Shown here piece after piece: positions 15,189-50,550 of a DNA stretch of 64,000 nucleotides. The translations under genes were made by a program, and so were the position numbers. The DNA lies in NCBI GenBank assembly GCA_015661005.1, contig JACTTX010000002.1, positions 856 to 64,855 of the forward strand, given 5' to 3'. The notes beneath the pieces are model-generated. The model saw only the letters and a list, made by a program, of their open reading frames with translations, had not been told where the DNA came from and made no database searches. Every line of letters begins with the position of its first letter. Position 1 is the stretch's first letter. Source of the stretch: Candidatus Magasanikiibacteriota bacterium. GTDB taxonomy: Bacteria > Patescibacteriota > Patescibacteriia > Magasanikbacterales > JACTTX01.

Positions 15189-15542
15189 TTACATTTTAAT
15201 TTCTATGTCAACACCGGCCGGCAGATTTAAACTCATCAAGGCATCAATGGTCTTTGGCGTTGGATCAATGATGTCAATTAATCTTTTGTGCACGCGCATT
15301 TCATATTGCTCGCGCGCGTCCTTATGCACAAAACTGGAACGGTTCACCGTGTATTTGGATTTCTCCGTGGGCAGTGGCACCGGCCCGACCACTTGGGCGC
15401 CACTGCGTTCAGCGGTATCCATAATGGTTTTAGTGGCCGCGTCAATGATCTTGTGATCATAAGCGCGAATCTTTATACGGATCCGCTGACCGTTGCCGGT
15501 TTCTTCTTTTTTCTTAACTTGTGTGGCTGTTGCTTCCGCCAT
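15189..15542 (-). CDS. rpsJ: 30S ribosomal protein S10
   Basis: [16 protein letters not shown]...[19 protein letters not shown] is the uS10 signature. Confidence 0.92.
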
Positions 15543-15607: not shown

Positions 15608-16798
15608 TTACTTAATTATCTTCACGACCGCGCCCGCGCCCACGGTTTTGCCGCCTTCGCGAATGGCGAAACGTTGTTTCTCTTCAAGCGCCACCGGCGT
15701 GATCAGCTTGACCGTGATGTCCACCGTGTCGCCGGGCATCACCATTTCCGTGCCGGCCGGCAAGGTTACTTCACCGGTCACGTCTGTGGTGCGCATATAA
15801 AACTGCGGCTTGTAACCGTTCATAAACGGCTTGTGACGTCCGCCTTCCTCTTTGGTCAGCGCATAAACCTGCGTTTCAAATTCCGTGTGCGGTGTCACAC
15901 TTCCCGGCTTGGCCAAAACCATGCCGCGTTCCACTTCATCTTTCTTGGTGCCACGCAACAAGAGTCCGGCGTTGTCACCAGCGCGACCTTCATCCAACTG
16001 CTTATTGAACATTTCAATGCCGGTCACCACGGTTTTGCGCGTTTCCGCCAAACCGACGATTTCCACTTCTTCATTGATATTAATCTTTCCGCGCTCAATA
16101 CGTCCGGTTACCACCGTGCCGCGGCCTTCAATGGAGAAGACATCTTCAATCGGCATGAGGAACGGTTTGTCTACATCGCGCTGTGGTTCAGGAATGTATG
16201 TATCCAGAGTGCTGATCAAATCCAAAATTGGTTTGGAAGCGACTTCATCCGAGGGATTCTCCAGCGCTTTCAAAGCCGAACCGCGGATGATTGGCGTGGT
16301 GTCCCCAGGGAATTGGTATTTTTTCAAAAGGTCTTTGATTTCCTCTTCCACCAAATCAATGAGTTCCGGATCCGACACTTGGTCAACTTTATTCAAAAAT
16401 ACCACGATGTAAGGCACACCAACCTGACGAGCGAGCAAAATGTGCTCACGGGTCTGGGGCATGGGGCCGTCCGCGGCGGAAACCACAAGAATGGCGGCAT
16501 CCATTTGCGCCGCGCCGGTGATCATGTTTTTAACGTAGTCAGCGTGACCCGGACAATCAACGTGCGCATAATGGCGCGCCGCCGACTCATACTCAACGTG
16601 AGCCGTGGCAATGGTGATGCCGCGGGCTTTTTCTTCCGGCGCGGCGTCAATTTCATCAACTTTCTTATCTTGAGCCGTCATGCCGTGGGCCTTCAAAACC
16701 TGAAGAATGGCCGCGGTTAAAGTTGTTTTACCGTGATCAACGTGACCGATCGTGCCCACATTGACGTGGGGCTTGGTGCGTTCAAACTTTCCTGCCAT
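15608..16798 (-). CDS. tuf: elongation factor Tu
   Basis: 396 aa; [11 protein letters not shown]1 motif, [12 protein letters not shown]. Confidence 0.97.
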
Positions 16799-16905
16799 AT
16801 TATTGGTATTTTAGGATTTTTTGAGTGAATAAAAGAGACGGCCGCAAGTATAACAGAGGGATAAAAATCGTGCAAGTGGGGCTGTGGAATAATTGCCGAG
16901 CGGGT

Positions 16906-17391
16906 TTACTCCACCGGCTCAAAAAAGAATTGCGTTTCCGTTTTCTTTTCTTCTTTTTCCGGCCCCAAAGCCGCTGGCGATTCTTCATCTTGCGTCTCCA
17001 TCAAAATATCTCTAAGCGCGGACAACCCGCTCCAAGCCGGAGCCGCGACCGGTTCCAAGTATTGCGGTTCTTCTGAAGGTGTCACTTCTAAAGGTGCCAC
17101 TTCTAAATTTTCTCTTACAGACGCCGCCAAATCCTCCGTCGTTTTTTCTTTCTTTTGAGTTTCTCTCCAGAGCGCCACATCGCGATTGATTTTATCAATC
17201 AACTGTTCACCGCCGGTTTCTATTGGCGCCGCCGGAGCCGCCGAGTTTCCGTCCACTGCGGGCAAAACTAACCGTTCATATTCAGGCACGGTCATGACGA
17301 CGTAGGAATTATCACCGTCAATCACAATGGCGCGATCTCCGGTTTTTTGAATGAGTTTAAGGAGGCGTTCAATGGGAAACATAGTGAACAT
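16906..17391 (-). CDS. hypothetical protein, Phd/YefM-like N-terminal fold followed by an acidic disordered tail
   Basis: N-terminus ERLLKLIQKTGDRAIVIDGDNSYVVMTVPEYERL resembles the Phd/YefM antitoxin fold. The rest is E/P/A-rich. A sigma70-like promoter (TTGACT-17-TAAAAT) lies about 30 nt upstream. Confidence 0.4.
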   Translation of the reverse strand: MFTMFPIERLLKLIQKTGDRAIVIDGDNSYVVMTVPEYERLVLPAVDGNSAAPAAPIETGGEQLIDKINRDVALWRETQKKEKTTEDLAASVRENLEVAPLEVTPSEEPQYLEPVAAPAWSGLSALRDILMETQDEESPAALGPEKEEKKTETQFFFEPVE

Positions 17392-17515
17392 AGTGTGGTT
17401 ATTTTAAAACCTTTATGAATACGAGTCAAATAATTAGGTTTACCGCCATCATTGACTTTCAATCTTTTAATATGATATACTCGCATTGTAGGTAATCCCT
17501 ACCGGATTTTGATCA

Positions 17516-17550
17516 AGGCCCGCCCCGCCAGGGGCTGGCCTTTGAAATTT
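17516..17550. terminator. GC-rich hairpin plus T-run, possible intrinsic terminator
   Basis: GGCCCGCCCC-gcca-GGGGCTGGCC stem followed by TTTGAAATTTT, immediately 3' of the NYN gene stop. Confidence 0.4.
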
Positions 17551-18161
17551 TATCGTCTCTGGAAACGATCCATATCTAAGCGATATTTAAAATCGTCGGC
17601 ATACAAAAGTCTCTGAATCACCCCATCTTTTACAGCATCGACAACTTCTCGCCCCACATGTCCGCGGGCACCAAATACATAGGACATCTTACGAAACGCA
17701 TCTCTCAAGTATCTAAGCGCATATACTAAATCGCCATCGCCAGAAAATAAAACAATGTCATCGTACTGATCACGCAAACGTATCAAATCCACTGCCATTT
17801 CAACATCAAAATCGCATTTCTTTTCATACCCGTTCGCCTTCAACGAATCATGAATATATTTTACCGGCTTTGTGATCACTTCAAAGCGATTCATGTTAGC
17901 CCGATTCAAAATACTAGCGGACCACAAAGAAAGTGTCGTTGATCGTTCTTTGGGTCCGAAATCGGAACCATAATAAAAGCGACGTAGTTCTTTATTGCCG
18001 TAGGAAAAAATCTTCACCAACCGCGATAGTTCCTGAATACCAACTTTCCATCCAAGATTTTCCTTCCATTTATCAACATTCCCGAAATCAACCACAACAA
18101 TAATGCGTTCCTGTTTTTGCGTAAACGAGTTAAGAAAAGTTGTAATCTCCGCAGGATTCAT
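17550..18161 (-). CDS. NYN/LabA-like (PIN-like) domain protein
   Basis: IIVVVDFGNV N-terminal acidic motif and the DIVLFSGDGDLVYALRYL 'SGDGD' motif of the LabA/NYN (DUF88) family. AT-rich gene. Confidence 0.6.
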   Translation of the reverse strand: MNPAEITTFLNSFTQKQERIIVVVDFGNVDKWKENLGWKVGIQELSRLVKIFSYGNKELRRFYYGSDFGPKERSTTLSLWSASILNRANMNRFEVITKPVKYIHDSLKANGYEKKCDFDVEMAVDLIRLRDQYDDIVLFSGDGDLVYALRYLRDAFRKMSYVFGARGHVGREVVDAVKDGVIQRLLYADDFKYRLDMDRFQRR

Positions 18162-18212
18162 ATATCGACTTTAGGAGATTATGACGAATCATTTAAGAGA
18201 GGCCGTCGTTCT

Positions 18213-19376
18213 TCAAAACAACGGCGCCGGAATGCCGAGATTCAGTGATTTAATGTCCGTTACATTTAACGGAATGGCGCCGGTGATGGCTTCCCAACCG
18301 TTTGGCGTCTGTTTTACATAGACACGCGCGACATCATCTCCCGCATAGGTCTGCACACCAACGCGAGCGTAGGATCCCAAAATTTGTTCCGTGTGGGCAA
18401 AGGCTTTTTGTTTGTACTCCGGGTCAGCGTTAATTTTTGCTTGCGCCGCTTTTTCCATTTTTTGTTTCTCGCCGGAATCAAGCTCATCGGTTTGATCGCG
18501 ATACAAAATCATTTCCGACGGCAAACGATAATCACCGGTTGATTTCCAATCATTTAATTTCCAAAGCAGAGTGCCGTCTTTTTGATAATTCAAGGAGGCC
18601 GCGCCGAGAACTTTTTCCGTTCCAACAATGCGAAAATTCACGGAAGAATTGTTTGGAACGGTGAACTCGCCGCTCATATCTCCTTCCAAAGTGCGAATGG
18701 CCGGAGCCGCGGCGGATAAAACCGCCACTAATTTGCCGCTGAATCTTGTCCCGGCCTGTTGGCTGTTCAAGACAACGGAATTGGTGGCGGGCGCGCCGTC
18801 AAAAGTCGTAACTTCAAGACCCGTCCATTTGCCGACGTATTTTTCCGGCGCAATGATGGCTTCTGCCGATGGAACCGTTGGCGCCGCCGCCGCTGATTTT
18901 TCCGCAATGGACGCAAAAACGCCGCGTGAGTCCGCATCATCCGTCACATACTCGGCATAAAAACGGTACGACGGTAAAATTTTGCGCGCCGTTTTTACGA
19001 TTTCCGGTTTGGCGGCCTTTTCAAAATCCGTTCGCGCGTCTTGGTTGTCCGCCTTGTCCGGCACAATGTAGATCCAAAGATGATTTTTATCTAAACCCTC
19101 ACCCGAAAAAATCCGAAAAGTATTTATTTTCATTGAAGTCACCCACGATGGATTGGCCGCCAGCGCATAACCCCAATACTTCGGGAGATTGATGGTGGAT
19201 GATTCACCGTAAGAATCGTCAAAAAAATCAACGCGCTCCCCGACTTCAGCGCTTGGCGCCGCGCTGGCCGCCGCCGGACTCTTTGACGGTTCAGTGGTTG
19301 GGCCGGTTTTCCCGCATCCGGCGCCAAGGAGCATCAACATTGTAAACGCGCTAACCAATAAAAATATTTTTTTCAT
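18213..19376 (-). CDS. lipoprotein, hypothetical
   Basis: Signal peptide with lipobox LLGAGC, then an Ala/Pro/Ser linker. Confidence 0.6.
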   Translation of the reverse strand: MKKIFLLVSAFTMLMLLGAGCGKTGPTTEPSKSPAAASAAPSAEVGERVDFFDDSYGESSTINLPKYWGYALAANPSWVTSMKINTFRIFSGEGLDKNHLWIYIVPDKADNQDARTDFEKAAKPEIVKTARKILPSYRFYAEYVTDDADSRGVFASIAEKSAAAAPTVPSAEAIIAPEKYVGKWTGLEVTTFDGAPATNSVVLNSQQAGTRFSGKLVAVLSAAAPAIRTLEGDMSGEFTVPNNSSVNFRIVGTEKVLGAASLNYQKDGTLLWKLNDWKSTGDYRLPSEMILYRDQTDELDSGEKQKMEKAAQAKINADPEYKQKAFAHTEQILGSYARVGVQTYAGDDVARVYVKQTPNGWEAITGAIPLNVTDIKSLNLGIPAPLF

Positions 19377-19492
19377 AATTTTTTGATCAAAATTATTCGC
19401 GCCTTCTTGTCGGCTTTTTTCTTTAATTTATTTGCGGCAACTAATCCTCCGGTTCCGCCGCCTAAAATGATGACTGTTTTTTGATCGGCCAT
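19373..19492 (-). pseudogene. remnant (39 codons) of an FAD/NAD(P)-binding oxidoreductase N-terminus (sulfide:quinone oxidoreductase / NDH-2-like)
   Basis: MADQKTVIILGGGTGGLVAANKLKKK is a Rossmann GxGxxG dinucleotide-binding start. It ends after 39 codons with a TGA that overlaps the lipoprotein ATG, and its start overlaps the pyrD stop. Confidence 0.5.
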
Positions 19493-19494
19493 AG

Positions 19495-20556
19495 TTATTG
19501 ATTAATCCCTTTATTTATTTCTCCGATAAGCTGAGGGCCTTCGTAAATCATTCCTGTTATCAATTGAATCAAGTCCGCTCCTGCGCTCAATCTTTCTCGC
19601 GCATCGTCTGCCGAGAAAATGCCGCCACAACCGACAATCACCACATTCTTACCAAAGACATCCCTGGTGTGCTTAATGAGTCTTTTCGAATTTTCGGCCG
19701 TCGGTTTGCCGCTAAAATTGCCTTTTACGTCTTTAACTCTGAAAATTTCTTTCTTGTCAAACGCCTGATTGTTTCTGTCTTTGACAAGATTAGAAAAAAT
19801 AAAACCACGAATGCCATTCTCTAAGGCCGAGCGTACCAACGTATCACTTTTGTCAAAATCGATTTCATTTGGCATTTTTACGAATATAGGTTGTGTTATA
19901 CCGCAAGAAGCCACAGCTTGGACAAGCTCCTTAAAATTTTTTAGATTAGAAAATGATTCCGACATTACCGCGTTAGGACAGCTTATATTCAGTTCAAAAT
20001 ATTTGACATAGGGTTTATCTTTGAATATGCGAAAAGTCTCCAAATAGTCATCTATGGCTTTGTTGATAGTGTTGACATCTGGAACATTGGAACTCCCCAC
20101 GCTTATACCGATCAAATGCCCCTCTAATCTTTTCCCATCTAAACGCTTGGCAACAGCTTCTGCTCCATCTGATTTAAAACCTTTATTCACCAAAATCGAT
20201 TTTGATCGTGGAAGTCGCGCAAGACGCGGCGGCTTGTTCCCCGCATATTTTTGCGCCGTTACTGTTCCCACTGTATTAAAACCAAACCCCACATGCCTCA
20301 TAACTTTTGCTAAATGTCCATTATAATCAAAACCAGCCGCCAGACCAACAAAACTTTCAAATTCCAAGCCCAAAATATTCTTTTTGATAGTTTTCTCTCC
20401 GCGCGGCAATAAAAAGCCTAGCGGCCATTTCCGATTCTCAAGACCTTCACCGATTTGCGTCACCATATTATGAACAAACTCGGCATCCAATTGGAAAAGC
20501 GCGGGCTTGATGAGATTTTTATACAAAACGCCGACTATTTTATTGTTCATATTCAA
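19495..20556 (-). CDS. pyrD: dihydroorotate dehydrogenase (quinone), class 2
   Basis: Close parallel to E. coli PyrD: KPALFQLDAEFVH, GLEFESFVGLAAGFDYNG, GFGFNTVGTVTAQKYAGNKPPRLARL, ELNISCPN, IVGCGGIFSADDARERLSAGADLIQLITGMIYEGPQLIGEI. Confidence 0.85.
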   Translation of the reverse strand: MNMNNKIVGVLYKNLIKPALFQLDAEFVHNMVTQIGEGLENRKWPLGFLLPRGEKTIKKNILGLEFESFVGLAAGFDYNGHLAKVMRHVGFGFNTVGTVTAQKYAGNKPPRLARLPRSKSILVNKGFKSDGAEAVAKRLDGKRLEGHLIGISVGSSNVPDVNTINKAIDDYLETFRIFKDKPYVKYFELNISCPNAVMSESFSNLKNFKELVQAVASCGITQPIFVKMPNEIDFDKSDTLVRSALENGIRGFIFSNLVKDRNNQAFDKKEIFRVKDVKGNFSGKPTAENSKRLIKHTRDVFGKNVVIVGCGGIFSADDARERLSAGADLIQLITGMIYEGPQLIGEINKGINQ

Positions 20557-20557
20557 T

Positions 20558-20908
20558 TTAAAATGTTAAAACTTTATCACTTTCCTTGATCAAGTTTGCC
20601 AGATCGCTCATGTGTCCCACAACAATTCCATCAATCAGTTTTTCTCGGCTTATACCACAAACTTTGAGACAGCTGGAACAGGCGACAAAAGGAACATTTT
20701 TTGCGAGCAATTCTTTCGTCAGCTCTTCCAAATTATATTCCTTTCCTTTCGCCTCTTGGTTTTCTTTACCAACATCCACGCCGTCTTCCAAGAGAAAAAT
20801 TTTAACTTTTACATCTTGGTCTAATAATTCACCGACAAGCCGTAGCGCGTTCCACGCTTTATCGTTTTTGTAGGGAAGCTCATTGATAATAATAGTAATT
20901 GTTTGCAT
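20558..20908 (-). CDS. DsrE/DsrF/TusD-like sulfur-relay family protein
   Basis: 116 aa; IIINELPYKNDKAWNALRLV...FLLEDGV...VACSSCLKVCGI matches the DsrE-family pattern with a conserved Cys. Confidence 0.6.
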   Translation of the reverse strand: MQTITIIINELPYKNDKAWNALRLVGELLDQDVKVKIFLLEDGVDVGKENQEAKGKEYNLEELTKELLAKNVPFVACSSCLKVCGISREKLIDGIVVGHMSDLANLIKESDKVLTF

Positions 20909-20912
20909 AGCG

Positions 20913-21251
20913 TTAAAATTTTTCTAATAATTTACCGTCGGCTTCCAGTTGGTCTTTCAGGGCTTTTCTTAAAGCATCATAAGCCACAAGAATTTTAGGA
21001 TTGGCGAGGGAATAGAGAATAGCGACGCCATCCCGCCGAGTTTTAACGATGTTTTGCTGACGCATTAAGCTCAGGTGTTGGGAAACATTGGCTTTCATAA
21101 TACCAAGCTTTTCAGCCATTTTAGAAACGCCCATTTCTTTTTCATCACGAAGCAAATCAATGATCTCGAGTCTCTTGGGATGAGAGAGCGTTTTACGTAC
21201 CTCGGCGTGAAGCTCAAAAATTCTTTTGTCCAGATGGTTTTTATCAGTCAT
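20913..21251 (-). CDS. ArsR/SmtB-family transcriptional regulator (no cysteines)
   Basis: HPKRLEIIDLL...VSKMAEKLGIMKANVSQHLSLMRQQNIV...RDG..ILYSL winged-HTH. It has no Cys and no alpha5 His cluster, so a metal or persulfide sensor is unlikely. Confidence 0.8.
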   Translation of the reverse strand: MTDKNHLDKRIFELHAEVRKTLSHPKRLEIIDLLRDEKEMGVSKMAEKLGIMKANVSQHLSLMRQQNIVKTRRDGVAILYSLANPKILVAYDALRKALKDQLEADGKLLEKF

Positions 21252-21540
21252 AATTATCTATTTGCAGAGTTTCGCATATATGATATATTGTAAGTATATG
21301 AAATAAAATGCCAACCAAGTTTATCCTGCCAATGAATAATATTTTGCCAATCAATATAAACATTCGACGTTTTATTAAAAATATCTTCAAGTTCTTTGAT
21401 GACCCATGGAAACAACTCTGCCAATCTTTCAATTCTTTTTGTCTTTGGAACAAACTTACATCTAAAACGCGAACATTATAGCCCGCGCACCTTTTTTTGC
21501 AAACAATTTTTTGCCAATCGCCCCGAATGTAAATCGCGCC

Positions 21541-23619
21541 TTATTTTTTCTTTCCTTCAATCACTTGCTGGGCAACATTGTTGGGCACTTCGGCGTAATG
21601 AGAAAATTCCATGGAGTATGAACCGCGGCCTTGAGTGGCGCTCCGCAATTCCGTGGCGTAACCGAACATTTCGGCCAGTGGCACCTGTGCGTCCACCACT
21701 TTAATGCCAACGCGATCGCGCATTTCCTGAATTTGTCCGCGTTTGGAATTCAAATTGCCAATAACGTCTCCCATAAATTGTTCCGGGATCAAAACTTCCA
21801 CTTTCATCATTGGCTCCAGCAATACCAAACCGGCGCGCTTGGCGCCCTCCTGAAAAGCCATGGAACCGGCAATTTTAAAAGCCGCTTCCGAGGAGTCCAC
21901 CTCATGATACGTTCCGTCATAAACGGCAACGCGAGCGTCAACCAAAGGATAGCCGGCCAAAACGCCTTTTTCCATTGCTTCTTTGATGCCTTTTTGAATG
22001 GCCGGAATATATTCGCGCGGAATGGCGCCGCCTTTGATCTCATCAACAAATTCAAAACCTGTTCCGCGCGCCATTGATTCCACGCGCAACCAGCAATGCC
22101 CGTACTGTCCGCGGCCGCCGGACTGTTTGATGTACTTCCCTTCCGCTTCCGCCGTCCCCTTGACGGTTTCTTTATACGCCACCTGCGGCGTGCCGACATT
22201 GGCTTCCACTTTGAATTCCCGTTTCATCCGGTCAACAATAATATCCAAATGCAACTCACCCATGCCGGAAATAATTGTTTGCAAGGTCTCTTCATCTGAA
22301 CGCACGCGGAAAGTGGGGTCTTCTTCCGCCAATTTGGAAAGAGCCATGCCCATCTTTTCCTGATCCTGTTTAGTTTTCGGTTCAATCGCCAGAGAAATAA
22401 CCGGCTCCGGAAACTTTATCTCTTCCAAAATAACACGATGGTCTTCATCCGAAAGAGTGTGGCCGGTGGCCGTATTTTTCAAACCAACGGCGGCCGCGAT
22501 TTCTCCGGCGTAAACATCCGTCACATCTTCCCGCGTGTTGGCGTGAAGCCGCACGATGCGCCCGATCCGTTCCTTTTCACCATTGGTGGTGTTCAAAACG
22601 TAAGATCCAGCGGAAAGATGTCCGGCGTAGACGCGAAAAAAAGTCAGTTTGCCGACAAAAGGATCCGAGGCCACTTTGAAAGCCAAGGCCGTGAACGGCT
22701 CATCGTCCGAAGCCGGACGCGCCACCACTTTTGTTTTGTCCTTGGGATCAAAAGCCAAAGTGGGAGGAATGTCCAAGGGCGAGGGCAAATAATCCTTGAC
22801 CGCGTCTAACATAAATTGCACCCCTTTATTTTTAAGGGCGCTACCACAGAGCACCGGTACAATTTCAAAGGCGCAAACGGCCTTGCGCAAAACGCGCTTG
22901 AGTTCTTCAAGTATTGGTTCGGTCCCGGCCAAATACTGATTCATCAATACCTCGTCATTCTCCACAATTTTTTCAATCAATCGCGCCCGATATTCTTCAA
23001 CCTTTTCTTTCATATCCGCCGGAACGTCTTCTTCTCTAATGTCTTTGCCCAAATCGTCCAAATAAATGTAGGCCTTGCGGGTCAGCAAATCCACGATTCC
23101 GCGAAAATTGGCTTCGGTGCCAATGGGGAGCTGTAAAGGATAAGCGTTTTTGGTCAAACGATCATGAATGGAAGCCAGATCAGTGTAAAAATCCGCGCCG
23201 GTGCGATCCAATTTATTGATAAAGCAAAGACGGGGAACTTTATAATCATCGGCGTAATGCCAGTTGGTTTCCGATTGCGGCTCAACGCCGGCCACGCCGT
23301 CAAAAATCACGCAAGCGCCGTCCAGCACGCGCAAAGAACGTTTCACTTCCACGGTAAAATCAATATGCCCGGGGGTGTCAATCAAATTAATGCGAATGCC
23401 TTTCCAAAAACAAGTGGTGGCCGCGGCCGTGATGGTGATGCCGCGCTCGCGCTCCTGTTCCATCCAGTCCATGGTGGCTTCCCCTTCATGGACTTCACCG
23501 ATTTTATGTTTCTTACCGGTATAAAATAAAATACGCTCGGAGACCGTGGTCTTGCCGGCGTCAATATGCGCGATGATGCCGATGTTCCTAGTGTTTTCCA
23601 ATGAATATTCTCTGGGCAT
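21541..23619 (-). CDS. fusA: elongation factor G
   Basis: 692 aa; [10 protein letters not shown]1 motif, DTPGHIDF, and EF-G domain IV/V signatures. Confidence 0.97.
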
Positions 23620-23714: not shown

Positions 23715-24182
23715 TCACCGCGCAAAATGCGCAAAGGCCTTGTTGGCCTCCGCCATGCGGTGCACGTCATTGCGTTTTTTGACGGCGTCGCCTTCGCCGT
23801 TGGCGGCCATCAAAAGTTCTTCCGCCAATTTTTGCACCATTGGTTTTCCGTGCCGATTGGCGGCCGCGCGAATAATCCATTTGACGCCCAAAGCAAAACG
23901 GCGTTCGCCGCGCACCGGAATTGGCACCTGATAATTGGCGCCGCCCACGCGTCTTGATTTCACTTCCACGCTCGGCCCGACATTTTTCATGGCTTCTTCA
24001 AAAATTTCCACCGGTTCTTTTTTGGATTTTTCTTTGACAATTTCAAAAGCGCCGTACACAATTTTCTGGGCGACGGATTTCTTGCCGCGTTGCATCACAT
24101 AATTGATGAGCTTGGCAATATCCGTCCGTCGAAACTTGGGATCAGGATTGATTTCTCGTTTGGGGGCTTGTTTTCCTCTCAT
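23715..24182 (-). CDS. rpsG: 30S ribosomal protein S7
   Basis: 155 aa; uS7 motifs [31 protein letters not shown]. Confidence 0.93.
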
Positions 24183-24227: not shown

Positions 24228-24641
24228 TTACTTTTTCTTGGCACCGTAGAGTGAGCGGCTCCGTTTGCGGTTGGCCACTCCCTGCGTGTCATAAACGCCG
24301 CGCAGGATATGGTAACGAACGCCCGGCAAATCTTTGACGCGGCCGCCGCGGATCATCACAATGGAGTGCTCCTGCAGATTGTGGCCTTCGCCGGGAATGT
24401 AAGCCGTCACTTCCATGCCGTTGGATAATCTAACGCGCGCGATTTTACGTAAAGCCGAGTTTGGTTTCTTAGGCGTCATCGTGCGGACAACAGTGCAAAC
24501 CCCACGGCGAAAGGGAGCGCCTTTGGGAAAGTCCGTGCGGCGGCGGTGCAAAGAATCAAGCCCGACCTGCATGGCCGGCGCTTTGGACTTGTAATTGATT
24601 TTCTTGCGGCCATGGCGCAAAAGTTGTCGCATCGTGGGCAT
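24228..24641 (-). CDS. rpsL: 30S ribosomal protein S12
   Basis: [14 protein letters not shown]...[10 protein letters not shown]. Start set to the internal Met of ORF 24228..24767. Confidence 0.9.
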
Positions 24642-24900
24642 ATAAAGGTATGGCGATAGTTTATAGGAAACAAAAAAAGGCGTCAATAGGCGAAACATTT
24701 GGGAGTCATCCCATAAATTCCTCTTTGGGAATCTTTGATTGTTTAACGATTGCGAGCAACGCCCCAATGTGGATCGGTTCGTTTTTCCCGTGTACGGGCG
24801 CCGACACCATTATTCCGGATTCTCCATGCCTATAGATCAGGGGCTTCCTCTGTGCCGCACGAGCATAAAACCGTTGCGCTCCAATACGACAACGAGTTTC

Positions 24901-25179
24901 TTAGCCGAAATTGGGCGCATACAGAATCTTTGCCTTCTTTGGCGCTCGTGCCTCTACCTCGTCAATAATTGGACGCAAAGCATGAGCCGGAATCTCCGCG
25001 CCTGATTCAGCCAATTCTTCCAACCAAAGCTCAAGAACTTCATGCGCCATTTTTTTTGCTTCTTCAAAAGTTCTGCCAAAAGTTACGCAACCGGGCAGCG
25101 CCGGAAATGAAACGTTATACCCACCTTCTTCGGCCGGTTCAAAAACCGCAGGATATTGTAAAATTGTCTCTTTTTTCAT
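24901..25179 (-). CDS. HicB-like (UPF0150) antitoxin-fold protein, apparently orphan
   Basis: YPAVFEPAEEGGYNVSFPALPGCVTFGRTFEEAKKMAHEVLELWLEEL is the HicB N-terminal RNase-H-like fold. No HicA-like ORF is adjacent. Confidence 0.55.
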   Translation of the reverse strand: MKKETILQYPAVFEPAEEGGYNVSFPALPGCVTFGRTFEEAKKMAHEVLELWLEELAESGAEIPAHALRPIIDEVEARAPKKAKILYAPNFG

Positions 25180-25353
25180 ATATGCACAGTGTATAATGTT
25201 GCGCATAAAAAATCAAAAGACTTAGGCGATTTAACGCATGGTGTTTTTGCCGTGTGCGAAACTGGAAAAAATCTAATTTTATTTAGATTGCAATTTTTGT
25301 TGCAGATTTTTTAATTTTAGCGTACTATAATGACTAATTACTGAATTAACCAT

Positions 25354-26145
25354 GTGATAAAACCCTACTTCGATAAACCGAATTTCAAACTCTACCGCGC
25401 TAACAGCATTGACCTGCTGGCTGAACTCCCCGAGAACTCCGTGGATATGATTTTTGCCGACCCGCCCTATCTTCTATCAAACGGCGGTTTTACCGTTCAC
25501 GCCGGTAAAATGGTAAGTGTAAATAAAGGCGAATGGGATGTCAGCAATGGTCTAAAAAAAGATTTTGAATTTCAACTGACATGGATTGAAGCGTGCCGCC
25601 GAGTATTGAAACCTGGCGGCACCATTTGGATTAGTGGCACCTACCACTCAATTTACCAATGCGGCTTTGCGTTGCAGGTTAAACACTTTCATATTCTTAA
25701 TGATATTGCGTGGTTTAAACCAAATGCCTCGCCAAATTTAAGTTGCCGTTTTTTTACGGCTAGCCACGAGACACTTATTTGGGCTCGCAAAGAAAAGAAA
25801 GCCAAACACAAATTTAATTACGAGACAATGAAAAATGGCCATTGGCCAGATGATTTTTTGAAAAAACCCAATCTACAAATGCGCAGTGTGTGGGCTGTAT
25901 ATCCGCCAAAAAGTTCGGAAAAAATCCATGGGAAACATCCGACCCAAAAACCGATTGATTTACTCGTACGTATTATTATGGCCAGCACTGACAGAGGCGA
26001 TGTAATTTTAGATCCTTTTACCGGCTCATCAACGACAGGTTTAGCGGCTATGCTAAACGATCGAAAATTCATCGGGATTGATTTAGAAAAAAAATACCTG
26101 GACTTATCAATCAAACGTTACAACGACTTAAAAAAATTGATATGA
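25354..26145 (+). CDS. type II DNA methyltransferase, beta-class N6-adenine (or N4-cytosine) MTase
   Basis: Motif IV FADPPY at the N-terminus and the AdoMet motif ILDPFTGSSTTG near the C-terminus give the beta-class order. DPPY favours N6-adenine. Strongly AT-rich. Confidence 0.85.
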   Translation: MIKPYFDKPNFKLYRANSIDLLAELPENSVDMIFADPPYLLSNGGFTVHAGKMVSVNKGEWDVSNGLKKDFEFQLTWIEACRRVLKPGGTIWISGTYHSIYQCGFALQVKHFHILNDIAWFKPNASPNLSCRFFTASHETLIWARKEKKAKHKFNYETMKNGHWPDDFLKKPNLQMRSVWAVYPPKSSEKIHGKHPTQKPIDLLVRIIMASTDRGDVILDPFTGSSTTGLAAMLNDRKFIGIDLEKKYLDLSIKRYNDLKKLI

Positions 26146-26666
26146 AAAAACGCGGAAAAGGCGGGGCAAACACACAAACAGGATTAAGATTTGAAAGCAA
26201 AGTTGATTTTTTGACTTTTATAAAAAACCAAGAAAAGTACAGCGTCAAAGGCGCTGTTATTTTTTATGATGGCAAAAAGGTCGGTCTAACTTTTAAAAAA
26301 CACGGATTTTACAAATATCTGGGGGAGAAAGGAATTGATTACAAAGAAATAATTTCACAAAAATTGCTTCCGGATGACGCAATATTTGTTATTGCTAATA
26401 ACACCATGCACATTATTGAAATTAAATTCCAAGAAGGAAGCGGATCAACTGATGAAAAATTACAAACTTGCGATTTTAAAATAAAACAATACAGAAAATT
26501 GTTATCAAGATTGAATGCGGAGGTTAAATATATTTACATCTTGAACGAGTGGTTCAAAAAACCAGGGTACAAAGATGTATTGGACTACATCATCTCCGTT
26601 GAGGGTTGCGCCTACTATTTTAATTATCTGCCTTTGCAAAAAATTGGATTGCCAGTGCCAAAATAA
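26142..26666 (+). CDS. putative type II restriction endonuclease (PD-(D/E)XK)
   Basis: Start overlaps the MTase stop (ATGA). 174 aa with PDDAIFVIANNTMHIIEIK, a PD...EIK nuclease motif. Same AT-rich composition. Confidence 0.5.
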   Translation: MKKRGKGGANTQTGLRFESKVDFLTFIKNQEKYSVKGAVIFYDGKKVGLTFKKHGFYKYLGEKGIDYKEIISQKLLPDDAIFVIANNTMHIIEIKFQEGSGSTDEKLQTCDFKIKQYRKLLSRLNAEVKYIYILNEWFKKPGYKDVLDYIISVEGCAYYFNYLPLQKIGLPVPK

Positions 26667-30462: not shown

Positions 30463-31614
30463 TCACTGGGGTGTTCCGGTGGCGCTCAAACCTGCCGCCG
30501 CGGTCTTGGCGGCCGGACGAATCACCAAATTTTTAGTCAGGTCTTTATAGATAACATCGCCAATGGCCTCAATTTTTCTGAAAACGTAAGCGCCGTCTTT
30601 TTCCACGGTTCCGACCGCCGGCCAAACGCTTTTGAGCTGGTTGTACACATCTGCATCTTTAGAAAGAATAATTGTCGGCACGTTGACGATTTTATATTGA
30701 TTGACCAATCCTTTTCCTTGAGGCGAAGACACATCAACTACTTCACTGTTGGTCACCGCCACGCCCATACTGGATAAAAGGCCATTGTGTTTGGCAGGAT
30801 CATAACATTCATTACACGATTTGTCGGCGAGCATGGTCATTCGCAATTTGCCGAGAATTTTATTTTGCGCCAGATCAAAATATGGCGGGATCATTTGCCG
30901 GAAAACGTAAACGCCGTCGCTTTGCGTTTCACCGATAGTTAAATTTTTAAAGATGTCATAATACTTCACGTCCTCGGAAAGAATGATTTGCGGAAAAGCG
31001 GTAATTTTATATTTTGCCGTCAAACTTTTTCCATCTTCGGAAAAAGGCGACACGGTTTTGGTATCGGCAATAAAAATGCCGGCATTCTTCATTTGATTGA
31101 TGAGCTCGCTCGGCTGCGCACAGCCAACGCATAATTTAGGATCGTTCAAAATAGTAACATAAATTTTTCCGCGCTCGGCGCCGTCTTTGGGATCAATGTA
31201 GACCGGCGGGGTTTTGGTGAAAATAAAATTATTGTTAGCCAGTCGGCCGTTTTGCGCAATAAACCCCGCCAGCTTTTCATTGGTAACGTCTCCGCTCGCC
31301 ACAAAAGTTGGAAGCCGCTCCAGTCCAAAATCCGCCACCAGTTTTTTCCCTTCTTCGCTGTCAAAGATCAGCGTCTTTTCCGCCGTCACTTCCACCGGAA
31401 ACTTTTTAAACGCCGCCACGGCTTTCTGAATATCAAAACAATCTGGACAACTCGGCGTCGTCAATATCTGGAGTGTGATTTTTGCCGGTTGATTTTTTTC
31501 TTCGGCCACTTTGATTTGTTTGCCAATGGCGGTGTTAGTTTGAAAAGAAATAATAGCGCCAGACAGTGCGGCAAGAAAAGCAATCCCAAGTAGCGCGCGA
31601 TTGACAGTGATCAT
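30463..31614 (-). CDS. membrane-anchored protein with three tandem thioredoxin-like CxxC domains
   Basis: Three ~110-aa internal repeats, each with a CxxC (SCPDC, CVGC, CNEC) and a downstream cis-Pro-like motif (LPTFVAS, FPQIIL, VPTIIL). Confidence 0.7.
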   Translation of the reverse strand: MITVNRALLGIAFLAALSGAIISFQTNTAIGKQIKVAEEKNQPAKITLQILTTPSCPDCFDIQKAVAAFKKFPVEVTAEKTLIFDSEEGKKLVADFGLERLPTFVASGDVTNEKLAGFIAQNGRLANNNFIFTKTPPVYIDPKDGAERGKIYVTILNDPKLCVGCAQPSELINQMKNAGIFIADTKTVSPFSEDGKSLTAKYKITAFPQIILSEDVKYYDIFKNLTIGETQSDGVYVFRQMIPPYFDLAQNKILGKLRMTMLADKSCNECYDPAKHNGLLSSMGVAVTNSEVVDVSSPQGKGLVNQYKIVNVPTIILSKDADVYNQLKSVWPAVGTVEKDGAYVFRKIEAIGDVIYKDLTKNLVIRPAAKTAAAGLSATGTPQ

Positions 31615-32432
31615 AAATTATAGGGAATTTTGTGAATCGGATTTAAAATCATTGGCGACTCGGCGGATTGACTTTCCGAACACGGCAAAACGGCAACCGT
31701 TTGCGCTTTTGTTGACGGGACAAAGGCCGCCAGTAAAATCGCGAGTACCATAACGCTCACAAAAATCTTTGTCAAGGTGAGCGGCGCAAATTTCAATCCC
31801 CTGCCTTCCAAAACAGCGATGCGAATGGCAAGAGTTGACTGTTCGGCAAATCCAAAAAATGCGGCCGGTGCGGACGGACGTCCCGAGAGTTTAATCAGAG
31901 CCGAGACCAAAGAAATTTTTCCCTTCTCACCGTTTTGAGCGGCGGCATCAGCGGCCACTTCTCTGGCGGCCAGCCATCTTTTTTCAAAATCCGCCACGAT
32001 TGGCAAAAACCAAAAAGCGGTGCGTGCGGCGTGAAGCAAAGCGCCCATCAGCGGATCATATGATTGCTGATGATGCCGCTCATGAGATAAAACCGCCAGC
32101 AGTTCCGCCTCCGTCAGAACGCTCGCCGCCGAGGTACTCAAATAAATTTGCGGTTTAAAAAATCCAACGCAAAAACATTTTGATTGATCGGACGCAAAAA
32201 TCCGAATATTATTTATTTGCTTGTTTTCAATCAAAGCGGCAAGACGCGGCGGAACCGCCGCCGACGCCAACAATGAGAGTGAGCGCAATAATTTTCCGGT
32301 GGCCAGAACTTGGCGAACCAAAGAAACAATAAAAATTCCTAAAACCGACAATCCGGCCGCCCAACCAACGCCATGCCAAAAATTGCCATGCGTAATCGCG
32401 GAAAAAAAATTGTCACAGCGAGTGATCGCCAT
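31611..32432 (-). CDS. BlaR1/MecR1-like M56 peptidase-domain membrane protein (no sensor domain)
   Basis: HERHHQQ is an HExxH in an M56-like 4-TM context, and the gene lies immediately downstream of a BlaI-family repressor. At 273 aa it lacks a C-terminal sensor domain. Confidence 0.6.
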   Translation of the reverse strand: MAITRCDNFFSAITHGNFWHGVGWAAGLSVLGIFIVSLVRQVLATGKLLRSLSLLASAAVPPRLAALIENKQINNIRIFASDQSKCFCVGFFKPQIYLSTSAASVLTEAELLAVLSHERHHQQSYDPLMGALLHAARTAFWFLPIVADFEKRWLAAREVAADAAAQNGEKGKISLVSALIKLSGRPSAPAAFFGFAEQSTLAIRIAVLEGRGLKFAPLTLTKIFVSVMVLAILLAAFVPSTKAQTVAVLPCSESQSAESPMILNPIHKIPYNL

Positions 32433-32433
32433 A

Positions 32434-32826
32434 TTAACTCCGGCCGCGTTTTAAATCCGCCAACAACTTTTTCAACTTCTTGCGATCAACTTTGTCCGTC
32501 TCTTCCAAAAAACAAGCAATGGCAACCTCTCCGAATTCTTTTCTAATCCGTCCGAGCGTTTCTCCGGCCAGCGTCCGATAAAATTCTTGCCGCGTCAGAC
32601 GCGGACAAAAAACATGCTGACCGGCGCGAATATTTTTTTTGAGCACGCCTTTCTTAACCAGCCGATTCATAATGGTCATGATGGTGGTATAGGCGACATC
32701 AATTTTTTTATGCAAATGATCAACGACGTCCCGCACCGAACCCCCCTCCGGACGCGACCACAAAATATCCAGGATGTCTTTTTCCCGTTCGCCAAGCAAG
32801 CGTCCAACATGAGACGGTGTCCGCAT
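32434..32826 (-). CDS. BlaI/MecI/CopY-family transcriptional repressor
   Basis: LGEREKDILDILWSRPEGGSVRDVVDHL...YTTIMTIMNRLVKKGVLKK winged helix of the penicillinase-repressor family. No C-terminal Cys cluster, so BlaI-like rather than CopY-like. Confidence 0.8.
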   Translation of the reverse strand: MRTPSHVGRLLGEREKDILDILWSRPEGGSVRDVVDHLHKKIDVAYTTIMTIMNRLVKKGVLKKNIRAGQHVFCPRLTRQEFYRTLAGETLGRIRKEFGEVAIACFLEETDKVDRKKLKKLLADLKRGRS

Positions 32827-32920: not shown

Positions 32921-33301
32921 TCATCTGACCCACTCCCGCCACGATTTTGGCCAACCGCGTAGCAACAACAAGGCCAGAGGCGCGCCCCAGTTGGCCCATC
33001 TTTCCACAAAATCCCAAAACGATTCGCCAACCAACGGACGTAAAATGGCGGTCCAGAAACCCCAAACGGCGGCCCAAGCCAGCACACCGCGCACCGGCTT
33101 CACCAAAATAATCAAAGCCACAATCAGATCCATAATACCAATCGCCAACAAAATTTTGCCGGCCAAGACGGCGTCTGTCTGCAAAATTTCCTGAATCCAT
33201 TTGATCCACTGCGCTTTGCCTTGAATGGCAAAGACGCCGTGTCCGACGAATTCTCCAAAAATCGCGAGCCGCAAGGCCCAATGAGCAAGTTTATTTTCCA
33301 T
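32921..33301 (-). CDS. DoxX-like small membrane protein
   Basis: 126 aa with 3-4 TM helices and DoxX-like topology; weak assignment. Confidence 0.4.
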   Translation of the reverse strand: MENKLAHWALRLAIFGEFVGHGVFAIQGKAQWIKWIQEILQTDAVLAGKILLAIGIMDLIVALIILVKPVRGVLAWAAVWGFWTAILRPLVGESFWDFVERWANWGAPLALLLLRGWPKSWREWVR

Positions 33302-33329: not shown

Positions 33330-33716
33330 TTACTTGACGCCCTCCGGAAGAACGCAACCGCTTTCCCGCGCCAATCCGCTTAATCCTAATTCCCCCGCTA
33401 ACTTGCGACCGTCGGAAAAGATCCAGGTCGGATATTTTTCCACACCCTTATCAAGGCATGTTTGGGGATTATTCGGACACTCCACGTACTTCACAAATTG
33501 GAACGCGTCCCCGAAAGCCGCTTTTTCATTCTGGCAATGCGGACACCAGGCGGCGCCGTACATCGTGATGTCTTTTGTGGCAAGGCATTGGGCAAAAGAA
33601 TCCAGCGGCGCGGTGGCTGATTTTTTTTCCGACCATCTTGATATCGTCACAATTCCCGCAACAATGAGCGCGACTACCCCCGCCGAAATTAATAATGATT
33701 TCATATCATACAGCAA
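33330..33716 (-). CDS. membrane-anchored thioredoxin-like protein (VKOR-associated Trx-like type)
   Basis: MYGAAWCPHCQNEKAAFGDAF...YVEC closely matches the Trx-like domain usually fused to bacterial VKOR homologues. Confidence 0.7.
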   Translation of the reverse strand: MLYDMKSLLISAGVVALIVAGIVTISRWSEKKSATAPLDSFAQCLATKDITMYGAAWCPHCQNEKAAFGDAFQFVKYVECPNNPQTCLDKGVEKYPTWIFSDGRKLAGELGLSGLARESGCVLPEGVK

Positions 33717-49995: not shown

Positions 49996-50550
49996 TCAAT
50001 CACGATGGCACAAATTGTTAATCTGCTGCCTAATCCCATAACCGCGACAATGTTTCAGCACCCCCAGATACGATTGCAGACTTTGTTCAAACGCTCCATT
50101 TTCCAACAAACCTTGATTAAACTTTTCATATTTAATCTTCAAACGCTTCAATAACCGCCGCTTGGTCTTGGTTCTAAGAATTGTATAATGCGGGAACGTC
50201 ACATAACCCAAAAAATCAACGCCTTGATGCCACTTGCGGAGTACGATTTTTTTAGGGTGTAGCGTTAATTGCAGGTTGCTCTCTAAAAAATCCCGAATCA
50301 TTATGGTAATACTTTCTAAAAATATCTTGCTCCGCGCGATTACCACGATATCATCGGCATACCGAATATAATTTTGAAAGCCAAACCGTTTGGTGATAAA
50401 CTGATCCAGTTCATCGAGATAGATATTTGAGAACAGCTGACTGGTGAGATTCCCGAGCGGTATTCCCTTTCCTGGTTGGTTATGAAAGCTGTATACAATC
50501 TTTTCAATCAGTCCCATCAGCTTTTCGTCAGCAACGCGCCGCCTAATCAC
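49996..50550 (-). CDS. diversity-generating retroelement (DGR) reverse transcriptase, apparently 5'-truncated (motifs 4-7 and thumb only)
   Basis: GIPLGNLTSQLFSNIY carries the DGR-specific xGxxxSQ variant of RT motif 4. Motif 5 YADD (YIRYADDIVVIA) and motifs 6/7 plus thumb are present. The ORF starts with GTG directly after the TR hairpin, with an in-frame TAA four codons upstream. No fingers or motif A (N-terminal palm) region was found. Confidence 0.75.
   Translation of the reverse strand: MIRRRVADEKLMGLIEKIVYSFHNQPGKGIPLGNLTSQLFSNIYLDELDQFITKRFGFQNYIRYADDIVVIARSKIFLESITIMIRDFLESNLQLTLHPKKIVLRKWHQGVDFLGYVTFPHYTILRTKTKRRLLKRLKIKYEKFNQGLLENGAFEQSLQSYLGVLKHCRGYGIRQQINNLCHRD

Follow-up and report, generated by a model that had tools for sequence, protein, structure and literature searches.

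Why does 4.7 kb of DNA separate fusA from tuf in the str operon of a Candidatus Magasanikbacteria genome, and was that DNA gained in one event or in several? The organism is an ultra-small groundwater bacterium of the candidate phyla radiation (CPR), and the insert occupies positions 16799-21540 of a 64-kb stretch of one of its contigs, the whole of which we refer to as the window. The insert carries genes for an ArsR-type regulator, a DsrE-like protein, a dihydroorotate dehydrogenase (DHODH, encoded by pyrD), the start of a flavoprotein, a lipoprotein, a NYN-domain protein, and a conserved protein that we call X. A sequence-only reading of the locus had proposed that these genes form a mostly low-GC, horizontally acquired island that interrupts a universal S12-S7-EF-G-EF-Tu gene order. 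We conclude, with a probability of roughly three in four, that genes were gained here on at least three separate occasions and form a mosaic in one variable slot, and that the insert is not a single island.

The Insert between fusA and tuf Is a Compositional Mosaic

The whole region is encoded on the minus strand of a 73.9-kb contig from a metagenome-assembled genome (MAG) that carries the NCBI label Candidatus Magasanikbacteria (locus tags HW383_90 and HW383_91). The genes follow one another in the order rpsL, rpsG, fusA, the insert, tuf, rpsJ, and the S10 operon, and the insert is the exact span from the fusA stop codon to the tuf start codon, 4,742 bp, just where the sequence-only reading had placed the split. 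The gene inventory given in that reading was also borne out: Pfam and NCBIfam confirmed the ArsR/SmtB, DsrE, DHO_dh, and NYN families, and what had been described as a decayed oxidoreductase start is present as a 39-aa Rossmann/FAD N-terminal stub. All of the cargo genes are oriented with the operon, and arsR, dsrE, pyrD, the stub, and the lipoprotein gene either overlap or are separated by gaps of 1-7 nt. We found no exact-protein matches for PyrD (with either of two start codons), EF-G, or the lipoprotein; the PyrD on record differs by one residue.

The GC content of the region steps sharply at 21.5, 19.4, 18.2, and 17.5 kb, as it might if unrelated low-GC contigs had been joined into the str operon by an error of assembly or binning. 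However, the insert is spanned by two independent assemblies of other samples. One, an independent ENA assembly (L089), matches window positions 22593-19020 at 99.9% identity and carries the end of fusA, arsR, dsrE, pyrD, the stub, and part of the lipoprotein gene; the other, from a JGI metagenome (L081), matches positions 18241-15267 at 99.8% and carries part of the lipoprotein gene, the NYN gene, X, tuf, and part of rpsJ. Reading frames also abut or overlap across the junctions. The junctions are thus reproduced by independent assemblies, the insert is not an assembly chimera, and the chance that it is one is negligible.

Composition was measured against the rest of the window (GC 0.491 ± 0.019; GC at third codon positions [GC3] of genes 0.52 ± 0.07). 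The insert as a whole has a GC content of 0.431 (z = -3.1), and its low-GC DNA, ~60% of the total, lies in two separate blocks. The first is a 2.1-kb cassette containing arsR, dsrE, pyrD, and the stub, which has a GC content of 0.389 (z = -3.8) and a tetranucleotide z of 5.7, with a GC shift at its right edge (~19400). The second is the NYN unit (17470-18212), which has a GC content of 0.415 (z = -2.1) and a tetranucleotide z of 3.5. The lipoprotein gene (GC ~0.50, GC3 0.521, tetranucleotide z = -1.2) is not distinguishable from the host, and gene X (GC3 0.488, tetranucleotide z = 0.4) is likewise host-like. The description of the insert as mostly low in GC, for which GC and codon usage had been proposed as the check, therefore holds for the cassette and the NYN unit and not for the lipoprotein gene or X, and the host-divergent composition that is a hallmark of genomic islands is found in the same two blocks and missing from the same two genes.

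Gene X Resides in a Slot That Varies among CPR Genomes

We compared the fusA-tuf junction across genomes in an EF-G scan (one genome per species), which yielded 80 fusA loci, 17 of them from CPR genomes. The nearest EF-G proteins were all from CPR: that of a Falkowbacteria MAG (78% identity to the window EF-G), two at 74%, one from Uhrbacteria (73%), and one at 71%. The window EF-Tu occurs as an identical protein on two further contigs and is 86% identical to the product of L001 tuf. As in the canonical str operon (rpsL-rpsG-fusA-tuf), the gene order and orientation are kept in the window and the S10 operon follows directly; unlike the canonical operon, the window has 4,742 bp with six further genes plus stubs between fusA and tuf, where the gap in 54 non-CPR loci was 8-407 bp (median 122). 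The gap was 89-2,640 bp in 12 CPR loci, and four further CPR loci had no tuf within 3.7-10 kb. Adjacency of fusA and tuf, which had been assumed to be universal, is thus not universal in the CPR, and the window gap is the largest among the loci at which tuf was found.

The genes that fill this gap in other CPR genomes are unrelated to those in the window and comprise a methyltransferase and an APH-type kinase (L003), a histidine phosphatase and a GNAT protein (L009), a GT2 protein and membrane proteins (L008), a CYTH-like protein (L007), a CxxCxxCC protein (L044), and a 1,616-aa protein (L005). The variable gap and the unrelated cargo together mark the fusA/X-tuf junction as a general site for cargo in the CPR. 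Homologs of ArsR, DsrE, PyrD, the lipoprotein, and the NYN protein are missing from all 80 fusA loci, so the insert shows the absence from the same site that is expected of a genomic island, with the closest relative at 78% EF-G identity, and no related genome among these loci has the same gene order. We did not find an empty site in a close relative either; a single-protein metagenome scan with X gave only a contig of the same species.

In contrast to the other genes of the insert, X has homologs at the same position elsewhere. They lie directly upstream of tuf in six relatives (L001, 12087-12419; L002, 12207-12452; L003, 13929-14297; L004, 3897-4319; L007, 4073-4456; and L030, 12742-13098), and X is the sole gene between fusA and tuf in L001, L002, and L004. 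L008 has a further homolog, directly after which the contig breaks off. Judged by this synteny, X is a conserved resident of the operon and not cargo. The sequence-only reading had counted it among the acquired genes as a Phd-like protein; the Phd-like label is fair at the level of the family (see below), but the gene is resident and has host composition.

The opposite edge of the str operon also carries low-GC DNA. A second insertion at window positions 24901-26666 (GC 0.38, z = -3.5, tetranucleotide z = 5.2) encodes a HicB-like antitoxin (24901-25206), a type II N6/N4 DNA methyltransferase (25354-26145), and a 174-aa PD-(D/E)XK-like open reading frame (ORF; 26142-26666). A gene for an M50-type peptidase lies directly upstream of rpsL in L001, L002, and L009; in the window the two are ~2.1 kb apart.

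The pyrD Cassette Bears Marks of Transfer between CPR Genomes

PyrD homologs of the window type are common in CPR genomes at ~60%-65% identity, and there is a tight cluster at 79%-87%, two members of which occupy quite different contexts. At L084 (GCA_035583565.1; the same locus was found again as L083 and L085-L088), pyrD is preceded by YdjM, an 80-aa ORF, and a 5'-truncated dsrE, in that order, and is followed by DUF302, further genes, and a 128-aa gene; at L097-L099, AbiEii and PRiA4_ORF3 precede it, and the 128-aa gene and a different DsrE (29% identical) follow. Window positions 19495-20717, which comprise pyrD and the last 160 bp of dsrE, are 89.4% identical to L084 at the nucleotide level over 1,224 bp, the last 53 codons of the window dsrE specify a sequence 85% identical to the truncated L084 DsrE, and pyrD alone is 88.0% identical to its counterpart in L097. 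The homology with L084 ends at the pyrD stop codon, and with both loci it breaks exactly at gene borders, beyond which the flanks are entirely different. Save for a distant copy of the 128-aa gene (window 32921-33301), neither locus has any other DNA match to the window.

The synonymous divergence (dS) of pyrD is 0.28 between the window and L084, 0.43 between the window and L097, and 0.49 between L084 and L097. The 128-aa gene gives a dS of 0.06 for the L084-L097 pair and is saturated in comparisons with the copy in the window, as is fusA in comparison with the nearest genome. The distances of pyrD and the 128-aa gene conflict, which indicates that these adjacent genes have incongruent histories, the signature of recombination and transfer. 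Furthermore, the GC content of pyrD is ~0.41 in all contexts, a value in keeping with the L097 locus (0.408) but unlike that of the host (0.49), and the GC3 of the cassette genes (~0.39) remains unameliorated relative to the host. The cassette is bounded by a broken gene, or possibly by two, as would fit a fragment cut from a donor chromosome. Taken together, these comparisons provide good evidence that the cassette was transferred between CPR genomes. The NCBI label of L084, Candidatus Paceibacterota, might be taken for a class-level difference; we rejected it as such, as it is a phylum-level name only, synonymous with the phylum Minisyncoccota.

These results bear on the alternative that the arrangement is old and vertically inherited, in which case the low GC would reflect weakly selected accessory genes and the similarity of the pyrD genes would reflect relatedness combined with rearrangement in the other genomes. 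The close relatives at hand are contigs of the same species only, PyrD of the window type is widespread in the CPR, and GC content is heterogeneous in L084 as well, all of which would suit this view. It does not explain why homology with L084 and L097 stops at gene borders between entirely different flanks, why one border gene (and possibly a second) is truncated, or why GC3 is ~0.39 in a host with 0.52. It is also at odds with a pyrD dS of 0.28-0.43 where the other shared gene is saturated, with the incongruent distances among the three genomes, and with the absence of the cargo genes from the slot in all relatives at 63%-78% EF-G identity. We therefore consider vertical inheritance of the whole arrangement unlikely.

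The 128-aa gene encodes a predicted membrane protein of 126-128 aa (window 32921-33301, minus strand; L084 12211-12597; L097 7124-7510). It adjoins pyrD in L097 and lies near pyrD in L084, and those two copies are 93% identical at the nucleotide level. The window copy (63% amino acid identity) lies beside a gene for a thioredoxin-like CxxC protein (33330-33716) and a BlaI/BlaR1-like pair (31611-32826). An assignment of this protein as DoxX-like was discarded, as it has no Pfam match.

The NYN Unit Recurs in Unlinked Contexts with a Conserved 3' Element

The NYN protein scores 54.1 bits against the Pfam NYN model (cutoff 24.2). Its homologs are 75%-87% identical in Kaiserbacteria, Giovannonibacteria, and other CPR, and one in the gammaproteobacterium Sinimarinibacterium is 75% identical. 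The neighbors of the gene differ in all four contexts compared (the window, L091, L101, and L095): it follows a gene with a Cauli_VI domain in L091 and a DNA_binding_1 gene in L101, and in Sinimarinibacterium (L095) it lies beside a large serine recombinase and an IS3 transposase. The best match in the plasmid collection had at most 31% identity, the phage collection gave nothing, and PADLOC made no defense-system call beyond a generic NYN match and helix-turn-helix (HTH) matches.

The DNA homology between the window and L091 extends ~80 nt beyond the NYN stop codon, into a structured 3' element that is also present in L091 (6611-6679), L101 (3854-3924), and L095 (6619-6689). An alignment of the four 3' flanks revealed compensatory changes at 6 of the 14 base pairs of helix 1, and the window element has a minimum free energy of -22.6 kcal/mol (z = -2.4). 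It is better conserved than the synonymous sites of the NYN gene. A covariance model (R1) matched only NYN 3' ends in 0.5 Mb; helix 2 of this model is offset by two columns, and the usable covariation statistics are those of helix 1 only. The element has no match in Rfam. Its invariant 16-mer matches 20 IMG/VR contigs, but none of them has a NYN gene or the hairpins and the number is about that expected by chance, and these matches were rejected. We regard the NYN unit as foreign by composition and as widely disseminated.

A different NYN gene, of 170 aa, is found at L084 2532-3044, between rpsO (S15) and pnp (PNPase). This is another conserved gene pair split by a NYN gene, and a XerC-like recombinase is encoded close beside it.

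Horizontal acquisition, which had been proposed for the insert as a whole, is thus supported for the cassette and the NYN unit. It is not supported for X, which is resident, or for the lipoprotein gene. The latter gene encodes a signal peptide and a lipobox (MKKIFLLVSAFTMLMLLGAGC), and the segment MKKIFLLVSAFTMLMLLGAG-C fits what we take to be the PROSITE-type lipobox pattern. The protein belongs to no Pfam or NCBIfam family, and its sole match among 5.8 billion proteins was itself (HW383_91). As an orphan of host composition, it gives no clear sign of foreign origin; the most suitable reading is that of a surface protein that evolves fast and is specific to the lineage.

The Insert Lacks Mobility Functions and Is Not a Single Block

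Searches of Pfam and NCBIfam identified no integrase, transposase, or relaxase in the insert. The 64-kb window contains no tRNA genes, searches of Rfam gave no families, and the only direct or inverted repeats that flank the insert are short and at chance level. The insert therefore lacks the mobility genes, tRNA, and repeats that accompany many genomic islands, and it is not the single block, usually of >10 kb, that such islands form.

Alternatively, an autonomous mobile element (for example, a transposon or an integrative element) might target the fusA-tuf junction site-specifically and account for the insert. Different cargo at this junction in many CPR lineages, the conserved terminal structured element of the NYN unit, and the serine recombinase beside the NYN gene in Sinimarinibacterium are all features that such an element might leave. 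Nevertheless, the insert has no integrase, transposase, or relaxase, no tRNA, and no flanking repeats beyond chance, the cargo of other lineages has no gene in common, and the NYN gene has no close relative in the plasmid and phage collections. This explanation is, in our judgment, highly improbable.

The view that the whole 4.7 kb is one acquired AT-rich island, inserted into an otherwise universal fusA-tuf junction, draws on the low GC content of the insert as a whole, on the common orientation of all its genes, and on the presence of no insert gene other than X in the 80 fusA loci. For X, this view is already contradicted by the homologs upstream of tuf in six relatives and by its host composition. 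The lipoprotein gene is host-like and has no homolog, close homologs of the cassette and of the NYN unit occur in contexts that are different and unlinked, with host-like segments between these two blocks in the window, and the junction itself is not universal in the CPR. A single acquisition of the entire insert is thus very unlikely, although not quite so improbable as a site-specific element, and we favor a mosaic of separate gains.

Features of the Slot and of the Cassette Genes

The features of the slot and its borders are collected in Table 1.

Table 1. Features of the fusA-tuf Slot and Its Borders, in Window Coordinates and in Order along the Minus Strand
Feature	Position	Strand	Basis or remark
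rpsL	24228-24644	-	
rpsG	23715-24182	-	
fusA (EF-G), upstream border of the slot	21541-23619	-	692-aa ORF; rpsL and rpsG upstream
Promoter-like site after the fusA stop codon, TTGCAA-16-TATAAT	21475-21502	-	Consensus scan 10/12, motif match only
Low-GC cassette, 2.1 kb: arsR, dsrE, pyrD, flavoprotein stub	19373-21474	-	
56-codon ORF, possible remnant of a NYN N-terminus (NVYIDWQNIIHWQDKLGW), left edge of the cassette	21254-21424	-	
Promoter-like site upstream of arsR, TTGGCA-16-TACAAT	21287-21314	-	Consensus scan, motif only
arsR, ArsR/SmtB winged-helix regulator, 112 aa	20913-21251	-	Pfam HTH_5, 2.9e-11
dsrE, DsrE-family small sulfur-carrier-like protein	20558-20908	-	Pfam DsrE, 2e-22
pyrD, class-2-type DHODH	19495-20550	-	Pfam DHO_dh, 1e-51
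39-codon stub, FAD/NAD(P)-binding oxidoreductase (SQR/NDH-2-like N-terminus), right edge of the cassette	19373-19492	-	
Orphan lipoprotein gene	18213-19376	-	Signal peptide and lipobox LLGAGC, read from the sequence
NYN/LabA-like protein (PIN-like fold), 203 aa	17550-18161	-	Pfam NYN, 3e-14; GC3 0.387
Structured 3' element of the NYN unit, ~70 nt: GC hairpin, invariant GATCAAARTCCGGTAG, second small hairpin	17481-17551	-	
GC-rich hairpin of the NYN 3' element	17515-17542	-	
Promoter-like site upstream of X, TTGACT-17-TAAAAT	17401-17429	-	Consensus scan 10/12, motif match only
Gene X, 161 aa, conserved CPR protein with Phd/YefM-like N-terminal domain	16906-17391	-	
tuf (EF-Tu), downstream border of the slot	15608-16798	-	396 aa; Pfam GTP_EFTU, D2, D3
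rpsJ	15189-15542	-	

At the left edge of the cassette, the 56-codon ORF is the best non-self match in the window to a hidden Markov model of the 203-aa NYN family, in the correct N-terminal register (E = 0.07). By BLASTP it is 41% identical to the resident NYN protein over 17 aa, and the statistics are weak (E = 0.07 and 3e-4); the fragment has no DNA similarity to the resident NYN gene. It may be a remnant of a NYN gene of the donor, a weak lead. At the right edge, the stub encodes a Rossmann FAD-binding N-terminus (MADQKTVIILGGGTGGLVAANKL...; full translation MADQKTVIILGGGTGGLVAANKLKKKADKKARIILIKKL) with weak NCBIfam matches, the best of them to type III sulfide:quinone oxidoreductase (SQR) at 7e-5, and its stop codon overlaps the ATG of the lipoprotein gene.

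ArsR is a clear member of its family (Pfam HTH_5, 43.5 bits against a cutoff of 22; NCBIfam NF033788, 80.5 against 55), with a GC3 of 0.398. Because the protein has no cysteine in its 112 aa, it cannot use a dithiol or persulfide switch, and it scores 59.7 against a cutoff of 155 with the model for BigR (NF040642), below the level of the BigR/SqrR persulfide sensors. Roles as a persulfide sensor or a thiol-metal sensor were excluded on these two grounds. An AT-rich palindrome, CATATA...TATATG, read directly from the DNA, overlaps the promoter-like site of arsR and could be an ArsR operator. DsrE matches the fold profile of its family (80 bits against 22.7) but falls short of the TusD equivalog TIGR03012 (38.3 against 89), and no gene for TusB/C or DsrF/H adjoins dsrE; identification as TusD was dropped for both reasons. 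The protein carries a cysteine-rich motif, VACSSCLKVCG, in which a counterpart of the active-site cysteine is putative.

In ArsR/SmtB-regulated sulfur-stress operons, a repressor of the BigR/SqrR/SoxR type is found with a sulfurtransferase and an SQR-type flavoprotein. The cassette resembles them in its tightly packed repressor, DsrE-family protein, and SQR-like stub. It differs in that the regulator has no cysteine and a BigR score far below the cutoff, that the flavoprotein is cut to 39 codons, and that a DHODH lies in the middle. The cassette would be an ArsR-regulated DsrE/DHODH accessory module with a redox or a pyrimidine function.

PyrD Combines a Class 2 Scaffold with a Class 1 Catalytic Residue

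PyrD scores above the cutoffs of the class 2 models (TIGR01036 pyrD_sub2, 207.5 against 200; NF003652, 268.8 against 267). Like the class 2 enzymes of E. coli (1f76) and M. tuberculosis (8ofw), it has an N-terminal extension and a GLAAGFD motif, and it aligns with class 2 structures end to end, the alignment to 8ofw beginning at residue 13. Unlike them, it has cysteine in the position of the catalytic base, as in class 1 enzymes, and not serine: the NISCPN of PyrD lines up with the NVSSPN of 8ofw. The motif N[IV]SCPN was present in all 120 of the closest PyrD homologs (P0001-P0120). The sequence-only reading had called the enzyme a class 2 (quinone) DHODH, an assignment that the model scores uphold and that the catalytic residue does not. 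CPR bacteria are not generally known to contain quinones, so a quinone would be no more than a putative electron acceptor of PyrD. A literature search turned up no paper on DHODH in CPR or Patescibacteria.

A DsrE gene adjoins pyrD in three of four distinct contexts, one of them with a second DsrE that is only 29% identical. Since cysteine is found in the 120 homologs, DsrE genes lie beside pyrD, and pyrD appears to move with such neighbors, the cassette could be part of a mobile, quinone-independent CPR redox module in which a cysteine-type DHODH on a class 2 scaffold is coupled to DsrE sulfur carriers and, in the donor, also to an SQR/NDH-2-like flavoprotein. We consider this proposal speculative and probably wrong. 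If it were true, the oxidation of dihydroorotate would be linked to the chemistry of sulfane sulfur or disulfides in place of a respiratory quinone pool.

The X Family Is Possibly Related to Phd/YefM Antitoxins

The X family comprises 452 cluster representatives at E <= 1e-3, the closest homolog (P0242) being 76% identical. The members share an N-terminal module, KTGDRxIVxD...VxMxLxEYExL, a DKINRDIAxW helix, and a FYFEPVE tail. The Pfam model PhdYeFM_antitox (PF02604) is matched by 28 of 52 family members (best 2.2e-7), and the window protein itself has no Pfam or NCBIfam match. A profile of eight X homologs matched YefM structures at E = 0.056. In the AlphaFold model of X (predicted local distance difference test score, pLDDT, 74), the N-terminal module has an alpha-beta-beta-alpha arrangement; YefM, RelJ, and Phd were the top Foldseek matches of the model, none of them significant (E = 0.35 for YefM/RelJ).

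At the level of the family, X resembles the Phd/YefM type II antitoxins in its N-terminal module, in the Pfam matches of its family, and in its top fold matches. It differs from them in having no toxin partner, an extra DKINRDIAxW helix, an acidic-aromatic FYFEPVE tail, and synteny with tuf. No conserved toxin gene adjoins X, and a NYN gene lies upstream of it only in the window. Doc, the toxin partner of Phd, targets EF-Tu, and by analogy the synteny of X with tuf may be meaningful. In this CPR clade, a Phd/YefM-like gene is a regular member of the str operon, always placed directly before tuf.

Farther along the window (49996-50550), a 184-aa ORF with a GC content of 0.41 matches only the C-terminal part of RVT_1 (1.3e-12) and is probably what is left of a group II intron or retron-type gene.

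Discussion

We infer that the ancestral order in this CPR lineage was fusA, then X, then tuf, with a junction between fusA and X that accepts cargo in many CPR lineages, and that the gains would have followed from there. The 2.1-kb cassette would have been cut from another CPR genome, with the flavoprotein stub at one edge and possibly a NYN stub at the other. The orphan lipoprotein gene would be a fast-evolving gene of host composition, and the 0.7-kb NYN unit a disseminated nuclease-like gene with its 3' hairpin element. As the insert has neither a recombinase nor a tRNA nor flanking repeats, DNA that had been taken up was most likely inserted through illegitimate recombination or recombination at short homologies. 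The cassette probably has a promoter of its own under ArsR control, and it could be transcribed from there, with autoregulation by ArsR, or by read-through. The NYN 3' hairpin, just upstream of the promoter-like site of X, is probably a point of transcription termination or processing, and transcription of X-tuf may be re-initiated after it. The gene anatomy and composition of the insert, the near-identity of its pyrD to copies elsewhere, the conservation of X, and the variability of the slot are shown by the sequences; the order of events, the roles of promoters and operator, and the function of the cassette are inferred.

Several observations weigh against this account. Low GC is also typical of weakly selected accessory genes. 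There is no close relative with an empty site, as the nearest genomes are at 71%-78% EF-G identity and closer contigs belong to the same species, and the marker-gene distance between the window organism and the organisms of L084 and L097 could not be measured. The match of the 56-codon ORF to the NYN family is not significant, and the promoters, operator, and terminator are no more than predictions from motifs or structure. Any function of the cassette is putative; ArsR has no cysteine or histidine-rich sensing site that would point to its signal.

Gene exchange and genomic islands are reported to be common in aquifer Patescibacteria, with exchange mostly between Patescibacteria (PMC12455944, mSystems 2025). 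The insert resembles the islets described in that work in that it consists of atypical accessory genes in a streamlined CPR genome with their nearest homologs in the CPR, with restriction-modification and toxin-antitoxin-type genes nearby. It differs from them in being small (4.7 kb) and mosaic, in having no mobility genes, tRNA, or repeats, and in its place within the str operon, where the junction that it occupies is variable among the CPR. The insert is thus an ordinary mosaic islet of a known kind, and its position in the str operon is striking only against the norm outside the CPR.

This locus, with its well-defined limits, illustrates cleanly how genes are gained by streamlined CPR genomes: short fragments that appear to derive from other CPR genomes, truncated border genes included, stack at a tolerant junction in a highly expressed operon with no dedicated mobility machinery. 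In addition, the assumption that fusA and tuf are universally adjacent is corrected. Two by-products may prove of greater value than the island: a DHODH clade found across the CPR that joins a class 2 scaffold to a class 1 catalytic residue, and a 203-aa NYN gene, very highly conserved, that is accompanied by a structured 3' element from the CPR to the Gammaproteobacteria. Together with the X family beside tuf, these are the leads most worth following.

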